Shown here in pieces: positions 14,240 to 30,329 of a stretch of DNA of 64,000 nt. Both the position numbers and the translations under genes were made by a program. The first letter of the stretch is position 1; each line of letters opens with the position of its first letter. This DNA is from Microcoleus sp. (lineage in GTDB: Bacteria; Cyanobacteriota; Cyanobacteriia; Cyanobacteriales; Microcoleaceae): contig JAYFMW010000017.1 of assembly GCA_042408215.1 (NCBI GenBank), positions 96,001 through 160,000 on the forward strand, given 5' to 3'. Below the pieces are notes generated by a model, which searched no databases, was not told where the DNA came from, and was given only the letters and a program-made list of their open reading frames with translations.

Positions 14240-17200
14240 ATGTTAGAAATAATTAATCGTTACGCTCACGGTTTTGTAGTTATTCCAGTAATTTTGGCTT
14301 GTAAACAAAAAGGTCTGTTTGATCTCCTACAGCATCAAAATTCGCTGACTTTAGAGCAAATTACCTCACGTCTTGGGGCAAACAGCGGACACCTCCAAGT
14401 GGCTTTGAGGATGATGCGATCGCTCAATTGGCTTGAACGAAATGAGGTCGGACAGTATGCTCTAACAGATGGGGCTGAGATTCACAAAAAAATACCAGAA
14501 GAAATCCTAGACTTGTATCACCTGCCTGTAGAGTCTTACTTAAAGGGAGAGCAGCAGCCCGGTCTTCTCAAAGATTGGATCGAACGTTCCAGCCAGCGGT
14601 GGAATATTAAAGACCCAGTGATGGCAGATTTCTTAGATGGGATTCTGGTCATCCCTATCTTGCTTGGGCTCCACAAGTACAACCAACTTGTGGAAGATGA
14701 AGGTGGGCACTTATTCTCACAATTAAGCGCTCCCGTGCGCGAGGAATTGTGCCAACTGTTTGAGAATAAAGGGTGGGCCAATCGGAAAGAAGGTCATTGC
14801 GGCCTCACTGATGTCGGTAGATTTATAGCAGACCGGGCCTTGATTACCGGAACTACAGCTTCTTACACTCCCATGTTATCTCGGATGCCAGAGTTGCTGT
14901 TTGGCGACTGTCAGGCTGTGTTTTCCAGAGATGCTGCGGGGCACGAAACCCACGTCGATCGCACCCTAAACGTGGTGGCTAGTGGATTTCAGCACGAGAA
15001 GTATTTTGCTGATGTAGAGGATATCATATTATCTATTTTCAACAGGCTGCCTTATGAAGAGCAACCGAACTACATTGTCGATATGGGGTGTGGAGATGGA
15101 ACGCTTTTAAAACAGGTCTACGAAACCATTGGGTCGAAGTCCGCCAGAGGTAAAGTGCTGGATCTGTATCCCCTGCGCGCGATCGGGGTGGACTATAACG
15201 AAGCATCCATAACTGCGACAGCACGAACTCTAGCGGGTATCCCACACATAGTTCTGAAGGGAGATATCAGCGACCCGGAGGAAATGGTGGCTTCTTTGAG
15301 GAAGCGTGGAATTAACGATCCCGAAAATATCCTTCACATTCGGTCATTTCTAGACCACGATCGCCCCTTTATTTATCCCCAAAATTTAGAAAAGGCACAA
15401 GCTCGCGCTCACTTTTCATATCAAAGCGTTTCTGTCGATCCACAAGGGAATCTAATTCCTCCCCATATCATGGTACAAAGCTTGGTAGAACACCTAGAAC
15501 GGTGGTCCAGAATTGTCACTAAGCACTCTCTGATTATTTTGGAGGTTCACTCCTTAGAACCCCAAGTCATTAATAAGTTTTTAGATAAAAGTGAAAATTT
15601 ACATTTCGATGCCTATCAGGCATTTTCCAGGCAGCATCTTGTAGAAGCAGACGTTTTTCTGATGGCTGCTGCTGAAGCTGGTTTATTTCCGAAAGTTGAA
15701 TTTTCTAAGCAATACCCCAAAACATTTCCCTTTAGCCGCATTACCCTAAATTGCTTTGAGAAAAGACCTTATACGATCCGTCACCCCAATTTGTCAGACC
15801 TGCCAGCTTTAGTCCATTTGGAAGCTAAGTGTTGGTCAGAACACTTACGGACAGCCACCTCAGAAATTCAAAAGCGGATCGAATGCTTTCCAACCGATCA
15901 TTGTGTTCTAGAAATAGACGGTCAATTGGTGGGAGTCATGTATTCTCAAAGAATTTCCAATGCCGAGATATTGAGAAAGGCCACTTACGCGGAAGTTCCG
16001 TCGCTGTACGATCCTCAAGGGCCAGTCATCCAACTTCTTGGCATCAACATTCTCCCTGAAATGCAGGATAAAGATTTGGGCGATCGCCTGCGCGAATTTA
16101 TGCTACAGTTGTGTGCCCTAAAAGGCGGCATTTCGCGCGTGGTAGGGGTGACTCGCTGCAAAAACTATGTGTCACAGGCAGATAGTCCAATAGAAGAATA
16201 CATCCATCAGAGGAATGAACTAGGGCAGCTTTTAGATCCAATTTTGCGCTTCCATGAAGCGGGAGGAGCCACAATCGAGGCAATAATTCCGAATTACCGT
16301 CCAGAAGATGCGGACAATCGCGGGATAGGGGTTTTGATTGAATATAACATCCACGCGATCCAGCCAAAGCATTCTCAAGCAGCAGTCACAGAAGAGATTT
16401 GGCGCGATCGCCAGCCAAGCGAACGAAGGGAAAACGAAACCTTAGACGAAATTCTCAAAGGATGCCTCCGTTCTGTGATAGGCAACGAGCGCATGGCTGC
16501 TTTTGGTTCAAAACGGCCACTGATGGAAATGGGGTTGGACTCTCTAGAGCTTTTGGAACTCAAAATGCTCCTGAGCCTGCGCCTTGGCGTGGAGCTTGAA
16601 CCCACTTTCTTCTTTCAGTACAGTACGCCAGAAGCGATCGCTCGTTATTTTCAAAAGCCAATGTCAGCAACAGATACAGCTATGAAAGAGCCCATGTCAT
16701 CTATTCTGGATACTTCTAAAAAAGTTGAAGGGAAGGATCATTACAAGCCCTCAGAAGTTATAGCTTCGGGTGAAGATTTAATTGCCATTATTGGTATGGC
16801 GTGTCGATTCCCCGGAGGAGCGAATAGTAATGAAGAATACTGGTCAATTCTGTGTGAAGGCATCGACACCATCAGTGAAGTCCCTAAAACACGCTGGGAT
16901 ATAGATCGATATTACGATCCTCGGCAGGGTAAAAAGGGAAAAATCTTAACTAAGTGTGGGGGATTTCTAAACCAGCCAATCCAAGAATTTGACGCAGAGT
17001 TTTTTAGGATTGCCCCTAAAGAAGCTACCTACATGGACCCTCAACAGCGAATTTTGCTAGAGGTGACTTGGGAAGCGCTGGAAAATGCAGGATTAAACGC
17101 ACAAGCGCTTACCGGAAGCAAGACAGGAGTGTTTGTTGGTATATATAATTGTGACTACGATCGCCTCTTAGTTAAAGATGAAGAAGGCAAACACTCTAAC

Positions 17201-29021: not shown

Positions 29022-30329
29022 ATGGTAAAACGTCCTGTAGCTCAAGGAATGCGGGTTTTCTTTCTCATCTGGTTCGGACAGCTTGTCTCCCTGATGGGGT
29101 CGGGTCTGACTAAGTTTGCCCTTGGTGTGTGGGTCTATGAAAGCACCGGCTCAGTCACTCAGTTCGCTCTCATTTCTGTGTTTGCTAGGCTACCGGCGAT
29201 CCTACTCTTTCCCGTCGCTGGTGCCCTAATAGACCGATGGAATCGCCGCTGGGCAATGATTCTGAGTGACTCTGGTGCCGGTTTGACTACAGTAGCGATC
29301 GCCCTTCTTCTAGTTACAGGTCGCCTGGAAATCTGGCACATCTACTTAGCGGTCGCAGTCAGTTCTGCCTTTAGCGCCTTTCAATGGCCAGCCTATACCG
29401 CCGCCACCACCTTACTGGTTCCCAAACAGCATCTGGGTCGCGCCAGCGGTATGATTCAGCTAGGAGAAGCCGCCGCCCAGTTCCTCGCGCCGATGCTGGC
29501 TGCTGGACTTCTGAGCGTCATACAGCTTCAGGGCATCATCCTCGCCGACTTTGCCACCTTTCTGTTTTCCTTAGTAACCCTACTGAGCATCCGCTTTCCT
29601 GATGCCAAGACATCCACTGTCAGGAAACCGGGCGCTCTTAGCCTGGTGCGAGAAATGGCTTACGGCTGGACTTACATCACCGCCCGCCCAGGACTGCTGG
29701 GGCTGCTGATTTTCATCGCTGTCAGCAACTTCGCGATCGGCATCGCTCAGGTGTTGTTCGCACCGCTAATCCTAGCTTTCGCACCAGTCGCTGTGCTGGG
29801 CACTGTGCAGTCTATTGCTTGCGGCGGTATGGTAGTCGGGAGCATTCTGATGAGCGTTTGGGGAGGCCCGAAACGCCGTATGTACGGGGTATTGGGCTTT
29901 GAGCTGCTGCTCGGTCTGGGCATTTTCCTCCTGGGAGTGCGGGCTTCCATTCCCCTGATTATGCTGGCTGGGTTTGGTGCCTATTTCAGCGCTGCAATTT
30001 TCCTGGGCTCGGGCCAAGCAATTTTGCAGACCAAAGTCGCACCCGAGGTGCAGGGAAGGGTGTTTGCAGTTCGACGGGCGATCGGTGGGTCATCCCTACC
30101 GCTTGGTTATCTCGTTGCTGGCCCTCTAGCCGACAAAATCTTTGAACCTTTAATGGCTGCCAACGGTTTGTTAGCAGGAAGCATTGGACAAATCATCGGC
30201 GTTGGCCCTGGTCGTGGTATTGGTCTGCTGTTGGCGATCTCCGGCGCGATGGTCATGCTAGTAACTATTGCAGGTTCCCAGTATCCTCCCTTGCGGCTAC
30301 TGGAAGATGAACTGCCGGATGCAACATAG
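29022..30329 (+). CDS. MFS exporter (DHA3/macrolide-efflux-like, NRPS-associated)
   Basis: ~12 TM helices; WFGQLVSLMGS, GALIDRWNRR, QGRVFA; starts 1 nt after the NRPS stop. Confidence 0.9.
   Translation: MVKRPVAQGMRVFFLIWFGQLVSLMGSGLTKFALGVWVYESTGSVTQFALISVFARLPAILLFPVAGALIDRWNRRWAMILSDSGAGLTTVAIALLLVTGRLEIWHIYLAVAVSSAFSAFQWPAYTAATTLLVPKQHLGRASGMIQLGEAAAQFLAPMLAAGLLSVIQLQGIILADFATFLFSLVTLLSIRFPDAKTSTVRKPGALSLVREMAYGWTYITARPGLLGLLIFIAVSNFAIGIAQVLFAPLILAFAPVAVLGTVQSIACGGMVVGSILMSVWGGPKRRMYGVLGFELLLGLGIFLLGVRASIPLIMLAGFGAYFSAAIFLGSGQAILQTKVAPEVQGRVFAVRRAIGGSSLPLGYLVAGPLADKIFEPLMAANGLLAGSIGQIIGVGPGRGIGLLLAISGAMVMLVTIAGSQYPPLRLLEDELPDAT

Follow-up and report, generated by a model that had tools for sequence, protein, structure and literature searches.

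A hybrid polyketide synthase-nonribosomal peptide synthetase locus of Microcoleus with a PilZ-fold insert in its adenylation domain

Gene organization and predicted product

What does a small hybrid assembly line in a cyanobacterial chromosome make, and is it intact? This question is raised by a first-pass annotation of 64,000 nucleotides from Microcoleus sp. (assembly GCA_042408215.1; genome of 7.36 Mb in 30 contigs), namely contig JAYFMW010000017.1, positions 96,001-160,000, which we call the window. The annotation described three co-oriented genes, for a polyketide synthase (PKS), a nonribosomal peptide synthetase (NRPS), and a major facilitator superfamily (MFS) transporter, and our open reading frame (ORF) calls found all of them on the + strand at the same positions. 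We lean toward the reading that these genes are an intact three-gene operon and that, judging from the domains predicted, a branched N-acyl amino acid is most likely made and exported. The genes are as follows.

14240-24427, + strand: PKS gene (3395-aa ORF), a loader followed by one fully reducing, C-methylating module.
24520-29020, + strand: NRPS gene with docking, condensation (C), adenylation (A, containing the PilZ insert), thiolation (T), and thioesterase (TE) domains; a single frame provided that 26041-26045 is read as four C (C4).
24520-26118 (532 aa) and 26006-29020 (1004 aa), + strand: the two part ORFs of the NRPS gene in the assembly (translation table 11).
29022-30329, + strand: MFS transporter gene (435-aa ORF; Pfam MFS_1).

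The PKS and NRPS genes are separated by 92 nt, and the NRPS stop and the MFS start by 1 nt. The order PKS-NRPS-MFS is also found, with the three genes kept together, in the related loci L001 (Microcoleus sp. S13_C3), L002 (N3A4), and L085. Pfam and motif searches bore out the architecture described in the annotation, i.e., an MT-GNAT-ACP loader (methyltransferase, GNAT-type decarboxylase, and acyl carrier protein), one fully reducing C-methylating module, a C-A-T-TE module, and an exporter, and the catalytic motifs were intact in every PKS and NRPS domain examined by motif search. A scan for promoters and terminators in 13400-14400 gave a site count no higher than in shuffled sequences. The cluster is a further orphan hybrid PKS-NRPS, a member of a well-known kind, and word searches of the literature found no description of it. 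A small cluster (14240-30329, 16 kb) that has its own exporter gene and a precisely predictable product is useful for genome mining.

We infer the chemical steps, the product, and also the role of the PilZ domain from the sequence. Malonyl would be loaded on the ACP of the loader and, as residue 205 is a Thr of the AprA type, would be methylated twice by the AprA/SxtA-type metal-dependent methyltransferase (MT), and decarboxylation by the GNAT domain would yield isobutyryl-ACP. The ketosynthase (KS) and acyltransferase (AT) would perform one extension with malonyl, the C-methyltransferase (cMT) would add an alpha-methyl group, and the ketoreductase (KR), dehydratase (DH), and enoylreductase (ER) would complete the reduction to 2,4-dimethylpentanoyl-ACP. 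The acidic tail of the PKS would dock onto the TubC-type domain of the NRPS, and the C domain would couple this chain with the Gln (or Glu) that the A domain has loaded. Hydrolysis by the TE would then give N-(2,4-dimethylpentanoyl)-Gln/Glu; if the amino acid is Gln, release of an N-acyl-3-aminoglutarimide may replace hydrolysis. The MFS protein would export the product.

Adenylation code and release

The amino acid predicted in this pathway depends on the A domain. The domains and motifs of the NRPS, other than the insert described in the next section, are listed here.

24532-24672, + strand: TubC_N-type docking domain (Pfam, 65.2 bits).
24733-26040, + strand: condensation domain, HHIVGDG (Pfam, motif).
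26135-27181, + strand: A-domain core, motifs A1-A6, code DAQDLGVVDK (Pfam, motifs).
27305-27364, + strand: A8 motif GRTDNQVKVRGFRIELGEIE (motif).
27824-27901, + strand: A9 (LPEYMIP) to A10 (NGKVDR) (motifs).
27980-28162, + strand: thiolation domain, GGHSL (Pfam, motif).
28238-28957, + strand: thioesterase, GWSLGG and GDH (Pfam, motifs).

Motifs A1-A3 and A5-A10 were present, and A4 reads FDASVQ. The ten code positions were extracted via the A4, A5, and A10 motifs in GrsA numbering; FDASVQ, VFDTTP(S), (S)VLVGGE, NVYGPTECTVD, and NGKVDR were all found, and the resulting code, DAQDLGVVDK, reproduces that of the first-pass annotation. We take it, as did the annotation, to be the Gln code of LicA1, from which the surfactin Glu code DAKDLGVVD would differ by one residue. 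A 2025 survey, on the other hand, gives DAQDLGVVDK as recognizing both Glu and Gln (PMC12283262). The code proposed in the annotation was thus upheld, while its assignment to Gln was only partly so.

For release, the closest solved TE in a comparison with PDB sequences was that of AB3403 (4zxh, 170 bits), which is uninformative on the release chemistry. The annotation had speculated on a glutarimide. This suggestion has a real precedent, as the TE of IdgS cyclizes T-bound L-Gln to 3-aminopiperidine-2,6-dione according to PMC10989907, and it is a legitimate option provided that Gln is loaded; hydrolysis stays the default. In both IdgS/BpsA (indigoidine) and the window, the TE is envisaged to act on carrier-bound Gln. 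In the window, however, the amine of the Gln would already be acylated and there is no Ox domain. Release as a tetramate (Dieckmann) was excluded, as the beta-carbon would be fully reduced.

A PilZ-fold insert in the adenylation domain

Between motifs A8 and A9, the A domain is interrupted in its mobile C-terminal lobe (Asub) by a domain that the first-pass annotation had overlooked, although its architecture, code, and starter options were sound; it had also missed the mosaic origin described below.

27461-27802, + strand: PilZ-fold insert between A8 and A9, ~115 residues (Pfam, alignment, model, Foldseek, dN/dS).

Insert residues are numbered as in P0001, the 1004-aa NRPS ORF. The Pfam PilZ family (PF07238) matched residues 491-571 with 43.2 bits (cut-off 22.5) and split AMP-binding_C into two stretches, and the excised insert of 127 residues matched Pfam PilZ with an E value of 2.3e-12. 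The A8 motif lies at residue 434 and A9 at residue 607, i.e., 173 residues apart. We compared this distance with those in the 122 proteins P0001-P0122, which yielded 95 A8-A9 pairs: 32, from uninterrupted A domains, were 60-99 residues apart, 54 were 170-179 apart, one was 210-219, seven were 270-289, and one was 370-379. In an AlphaFold model of the insert, built with an alignment of 33 sequences, the mean pLDDT was 83.1 (>90 through the barrel), and six strands are followed by a long helix (model residues 94-130). A Foldseek search of the PDB with this model gave 30 matches at E<=0.001; the named top matches were PilZ domains, many of them solved with cyclic di-GMP (c-di-GMP). The top PilZ matches were 4xrn, Alg44 4rt0, MotI, and BcsA, with E values of 7e-6 to 1e-4 and target TM scores up to 0.70. 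The fold search was needed for identification because a phmmer search of PDB sequences with the insert returned only a chance match (aminopeptidase N, E 0.13). These modeling results confirmed the predicted PilZ beta-barrel fold of the insert.

The insert is widespread. By hand count, PF07238 was present in 97 of the best 120 homologs of the Asub region listed. A phmmer search with 114 residues of the insert in a library of 1.84 billion representative proteins (clusters at 50% identity) found 115 matches at E<=0.001, of which 61 reach 1e-10 and 6 reach 1e-30. According to regular expressions, A8 and A9 were >120 residues apart in 59 of the 115 matches and in 53 of the 79 that are at least 800 aa long. 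Within the genus, 33 of 79 genomes carry the insert at least once; the genome of the window has one such insert, that of the NRPS. As a separate observation, two PilZ-type inserts spaced ~700 nt from each other within a single open frame, a tandem arrangement in an A domain, were seen in genome G084 (contig C51, 26316-27419), and similar cases in G080, G059, G004, G016, G055, G074, and G082.

In interrupted A domains, all seven families carry a methyltransferase as the guest (Lundy et al. 2020, PMC8341866). Those of the A8-A9 type, such as TioS (A8-M-A9), have the guest at the same place as in the window, but there the guest is a methyltransferase, whereas in the window it is a PilZ barrel. 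The PilZ-interrupted A domain belongs to none of the classes published for such domains. The review contains no mention of PilZ or c-di-GMP, and among the papers retrieved by literature queries that paired PilZ with NRPS terms, none was, by its title and abstract opening, about a PilZ domain within an A domain.

What, then, might the insert do? Its fold and a DxSxxG motif are in common with PilZ receptors (Alg44 4rt0, PA 4xrn, BcsA, MotI, and YcgR), but it differs from them in having no RxxxR pair, in being embedded in the mobile lobe of an enzyme, and in the long helix that follows it. From this position, the barrel may modulate the adenylation/thiolation cycle on binding a ligand. As a tentative proposal, which we consider unlikely on balance, the PilZ domain would act as a switch operated by a ligand, either c-di-GMP or a nucleotide related to it, and gate the swing from adenylation to thiolation, and Asub(PilZ)-T-TE-MFS would be a mobile regulated release/export cassette that Microcoleus strains have recombined onto different upstream chemistries. 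If the switch reading is true, a second messenger turns the assembly line on and off at the enzyme itself, and a PilZ domain within an A domain would be a direct post-translational tie between second-messenger signaling and secondary metabolism.

The competing explanation, namely that the insert is a structural or protein-contact module and not a c-di-GMP receptor, has about an even chance of being correct in our judgment. In the 33 aligned sequences, the canonical RxxxR is absent: Arg491 (PDR-IPY) is invariant in all 33, and the position of the second Arg, four residues on, is occupied by Q or H. The insert is for this reason not classed as a proven c-di-GMP receptor. The PilZ protein proper likewise lacks the c-di-GMP binding motifs. 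The structural role also agrees with the Pfam match, which begins only at profile position 7; with the absence of GGDEF and EAL from Pfam scans of 27 of the 34 distinct window ORFs of at least 150 aa plus three shorter ones (the set omits opposite-strand ORFs nested in larger genes); and with the close ortholog L002, which has no insert and yet an open frame. On the receptor side, in addition to the invariant Arg, the (D/N)xSxxG motif is present and near-invariant (DISTDG, residues 513-518; D, I, S, and G each at least 90% conserved), and the named top structural matches are c-di-GMP-bound PilZ domains. In comparisons with five relatives, the dN/dS of the insert was 0.23-0.38, so the insert is under purifying selection, a further point against a merely structural part. 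L001, which has the PilZ insert, and L002, which does not, are a natural comparison pair.

Loading module and starter unit

The first-pass annotation left the starter as isobutyryl or propionyl. Both options stand, and residue 205 of the loader allows a preference between them. The loader consists of the following parts.

14240-15751, + strand: adaptor (AprA_N, residues 1-67; WH_AprA, 133-223) and AprA/SxtA-type metal-dependent C-methyltransferase PF23525 (residues 236-504) (Pfam).
15752-16354, + strand: GNAT-type decarboxylase domain, residues ~505-705 (alignments to 7uci, 2ree, and 6mfc).
16436-16669, + strand: loader ACP, phosphopantetheine Ser768 in GLDSL (Pfam PP-binding).

PF23526, PF23589, and PF23525 were all matched, the last with 373.5 bits. 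PDB 7uci/7ucl matches residues 1-705 over their whole length, at 1028 bits and, as estimated by eye, ~70% identity; this entry, named "Polyketide synthase-related protein", we take to be the MT-GNAT of SxtA. The alignment to the MT1-pseudoGNAT of AprA (6b39) scored 678 bits and fades past residue 516. In the GNAT domain, Thr638 and His672 correspond to the catalytic pair T355 and H389 of CurA (2ree) and to the equivalent Thr and His of SxtA; GphF (6mfc) has Ser at the first of these positions. When the alignments were scanned by eye, residue 205 (14852-14854), a Thr in the context ...(I/T)(V/T)ASY(T/A)PML..., was the only position within residues 1-510 with Ile in SxtA and Thr in AprA.

In relation to known loaders, the adaptor, C-MT, and GNAT are common to SxtA and the window, but SxtA has Ile where the window has Thr205, and the SxtA loader is followed by an AONS domain where that of the window is followed by a KS-containing module. 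AprA shares the three Pfam families and the Thr of its MT1, but it has an MT2 and a pseudo-GNAT; the window has a full-length GNAT and no second MT, hence no t-butyl group. A pivaloyl starter was rejected as unlikely, as only one MT precedes the ACP. As in CurA and GphF, the GNAT of the window is predicted to be functional. The outcome of the GphF loader is isobutyryl, the same as expected here.

SxtA methylates malonyl-ACP once, and an active-site change from Ile to Thr, as in AprA, permits a second methylation, according to the summary of Lao et al. 2022 in PMC10784701. Thr205 is, by inference from the alignments, the Ile/Thr position that sets the extent of methylation. Given an AprA-type Thr at residue 205, a GNAT with its catalytic residues kept, and a single MT, isobutyryl-ACP would be the probable starter, and we prefer it to propionyl-ACP with some confidence.

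A single methylation by the loader, in the manner of SxtA and leading to a propionyl starter and a 2-methylpentanoyl chain, is in our view unlikely. This alternative has in its favor that the loader is nearer overall to the SxtA MT-GNAT than to the AprA MT1 by the scores given above, and that SxtA itself yields propionyl-ACP, via methylmalonyl-ACP, as stated in PMC10673588. It conflicts with the Thr at residue 205 and the second methylation reported for the Ile-to-Thr change (PMC10784701), and the closest homolog, P0124, likewise has TTASY. P0124 and P0125 are metagenomic PKSs of 3657 and 3659 aa, whose loaders are 82-83% identical to that of the window.

Extension module and chain length

Following the isobutyryl starter, the chain would be extended by a single module, composed of these domains.

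16781-17908, + strand: KS (residues 848-1223), DTACSS Cys, HGTAT and NIGH His (Pfam, motifs).
18380-19234, + strand: AT (1381-1665), GHSVG, HAFH (residue 1572) (Pfam, motifs).
19490-20308, + strand: DH (1751-2023), HxxxGxxxxP, DxxxQ (Pfam, motifs).
20939-21454, + strand: cMT (2234-2405), S-adenosylmethionine motif LEIGAGTG (Pfam, motifs).
22703-23218, + strand: ER (2822-2993), NADPH motif HAAAGGVG (Pfam, motifs).
23285-23821, + strand: KR (3016-3194), TGGLGG, LDD, catalytic Tyr (Pfam, motifs).
24140-24334, + strand: module ACP, GLDSL (Pfam PP-binding, motifs).

The HAFH motif of an AT is malonyl-specific, and the LDD motif of a KR indicates the B type. By its motifs (GHSVG and HAFH), the AT is malonyl-type, and the DH, cMT, ER, and KR motifs are intact, in line with the single, malonyl-using, fully reducing, C-methylating module of the annotation. 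The PKS ends in an acidic tail, ...SELNEDEEEEMEL, which is identical in the orthologs at L001 and L002 and is likely the docking partner of the NRPS.

Single modules of the highly reducing (HR) type can work iteratively. If the module of the window did so, as in fungal HR-PKS-NRPSs and polycyclic tetramate macrolactam (PTM) synthases, the product would be a true lipo-amino acid with a longer, multiply methyl-branched chain. The domain order KS-AT-DH-cMT-ER-KR-ACP is that of iterative HR-PKSs, the Pfam matches include the HR-PKS families PF23297 and PF21394, and the corresponding modules of L001 and L002 have no loader, that of L001 also having an AT without HAFH, which fits self-priming iterative use. 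The KS-AT of the window, however, shares only ~46% identity with its counterparts in L001 and L002, against 77-97% (100-aa bins) with that of P0124, a PKS equipped with a dedicated GNAT loader of the sort typical of collinear cyanobacterial assembly lines. We judge iteration to be decidedly improbable and retain a single extension to 2,4-dimethylpentanoyl as the expected chain.

The NRPS reading frame

The assembly divides the NRPS gene into two overlapping ORFs at one homopolymer.

26041-26045, + strand: C5 homopolymer, probably one C too many (frame comparison, public contigs).

The C-to-A linker reads ...GAGTTGCCCCCTGCTCACT... in the assembly, and C5 sends the frame of the C domain to a stop at 26118. 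With C4, the linker becomes ...SELPLLTATERHQLLVEWNDTK..., the usual linker, which is found word for word in the orthologous NRPS P0003 (...SELPLLTATERHQ...). Each of the orthologous NRPS genes is one unbroken ORF, of 1515 aa at L001, 1413 aa at L002, and 1464 aa at locus L087 (P0003). Over 25400-26700, we compared assembled contigs, not raw reads, of four public runs (X21, X1, X2, and X22). Three of these runs, from two studies, each had one contig that is a base shorter at 26041: the X21 contig had no other difference over 899 nt, the X1 contig had none over 166 nt, and the X2 contig came from a diverged relative with 44 differences. Run X22 gave scattered conserved pieces only, and the site of the frameshift was uncovered.

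A second case in the same window is petA (apocytochrome f), an essential gene that is matched at only one place in the genome and is split into 61876-62442 and 62306-62884 at ...ATGTTGCCCCGAAGG...; an extra C in the run 62260-62263 (TTGCCCCGAAGG) causes the break, and one C fewer restores the expected protein. The split of petA is almost certainly a homopolymer error of the assembly, and the assembly may contain further errors of this kind. Because petA and the NRPS gene share a +1 C break, the assembly seems to tend to add C in C runs, and the NRPS is read as intact; we are confident that its extra C is an assembly error. The genuine NRPS frameshift that the annotation had named as counting against its own reading is thus most likely an artifact. 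That the NRPS is truly frameshifted in the strain, in a decaying cluster with no product or with the PKS intermediate lost, is very improbable: it would agree with the C5 of the assembly, with a recombination-prone locus (the NRPS gene of L087, which occupies the same place in the chromosome, has no more than a KS fragment left upstream of it), and with an in-frame TAG in a sigma-factor gene 5 kb upstream, but it is opposed by the C4 with identical flanks in the runs, by the same type of error in the single-copy petA, and by 16 kb that hold no further stop or frameshift and in which all catalytic motifs are intact.

Related clusters and mosaic origin

The comparison of the window with its relatives gave a different picture for each segment. 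Relative to L001, L002, and L085, identity was 86-89% in the C domain, 83% from DH to ACP, 90-95% in T-TE, and 90-93% in the MFS protein (90-94% when four related clusters are considered). For L001 and L002 alone, the C domain was 89% and the MFS protein 90-92% identical. The PKSs of L001 and L002 have no loader, and in a sliding comparison with L001 the PKS was 68-95% identical from the DH onward and 29-62% identical in KS-AT. The opposite half of the PKS has its relatives elsewhere: P0124 is 74-97% identical to the window in loader-KS-AT, and P0124 and P0125 are 60-97% identical along the whole length (100-aa bins). These two have the same loader and module but a terminal TE of their own, so release of a free acid is expected, unlike in the window, where the docking tail would pass the chain to the NRPS.

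In the A domain, sliding identity to L001 and L002 was 78-90% for the first ~100 residues, 23-56% for the next ~250, with bins of the A-core as low as 23-36%, and 74-100% for the remainder. From this pattern, the middle of the A-core of the window appears as a swapped specificity subdomain. The code of L001 and L002 reads PA-KIGHVGK as aligned. In L001 (2208-9908 and 9953-14500), the AT carries VPYH in place of HAFH, and A4 is an unusual FAADLGNT, code position 1 of the alignment lacking Asp; this suggests that the A domain of these loci takes a different, possibly non-alpha-amino, substrate. Moreover, L001 carries the PilZ insert, in contrast to L002, whose A8-A9 linker is ordinary and whose AMP-binding_C match is unbroken. 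Because the stretch that differs extends from after ...LVAYVV to ...ALPLTANGK, the difference is a segment replacement and not a clean deletion.

At L087, the C domain of P0003 is 39% identical to that of the window and the A-core is different, while Asub(PilZ)-T-TE-MFS is 91-94% identical. This locus adjoins the same kinase and response-regulator genes that are found upstream in the window, and a KS fragment (L087, 10640-10990; 56% identity over 117 aa) lies upstream of its NRPS-MFS pair. The chromosomal locus of L087 and the window thus appears to gain and lose PKS parts. Taken together, the identities point to a mosaic cluster, with loader-KS-AT from one lineage, a swapped A-core, and Asub(PilZ)-T-TE-MFS as a shared cassette. 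The combination present in the window was not found elsewhere among 40 relatives (DNA), 75 distinct C-domain loci, and, of the genomes in the genus that bear the insert, the closest three; the best other DNA match in the 40 relatives was 78% over 856 nt, in the Asub-PilZ-T part. The locus displays swaps of module, subdomain, and cassette, i.e., a grafted loader-KS-AT, an A-core subdomain, and a PilZ domain present or absent, and these natural swap points are the cuts attempted by NRPS and PKS engineers. Separately, L002 has after its MFS gene a gene of the choloylglycine-hydrolase family (linear amide C-N hydrolase; 15634-16686), which may encode an amidase acting on an N-acyl amino acid product.

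Several points weigh against the product proposed here. The evidence for C4 comes only from contigs, possibly of other strains. The Ile/Thr rule reached us through a citing paper and not the primary study (PMC10784701). The nearest relatives of the later module domains, L001 and L002, are loader-less, with the unusual VPYH in the AT of L001, which makes the chain length uncertain. The code does not decide between Glu and Gln according to the 2025 survey (PMC12283262); the swapped A-core may be poorly matched to the acceptor site of the C domain; and the mode of release is not readable from the sequence of the TE.

Neighboring genes

Searches by tblastn against 83 loci with the loader, both sigma-like genes, the lectin gene, orf129, and the glyoxalase gene gave matches only at the locus of the window itself. 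The flanking sigma-like genes, OAA-type lectin gene, orf129, and glyoxalase-family gene are excluded from the cluster because they have no counterparts beside the related clusters. The first sigma gene, of the ECF type (8654-9943), has region 2 in 8654-9055 and region 4 in 9077-9943, in the same frame and with an in-frame TAG at 9053-9055, and an intact sigma-factor paralog with a long C-terminal extension is present at 10393-11505. Directly upstream of the PKS gene, 11838-13583 encodes a protein of 581 aa in which the sugar-binding domain of OAA-family lectins occurs twice (PF17882, E 3e-41), a gene that is not conserved beside the related clusters. Downstream, 38156-44666 and 46181-54286 encode three RTX-repeat proteins, one of which has cadherin-like domains, and a surface protein of 2701 aa (Calx-beta, DUF4114, Ig-like); these genes are unrelated to the cluster.

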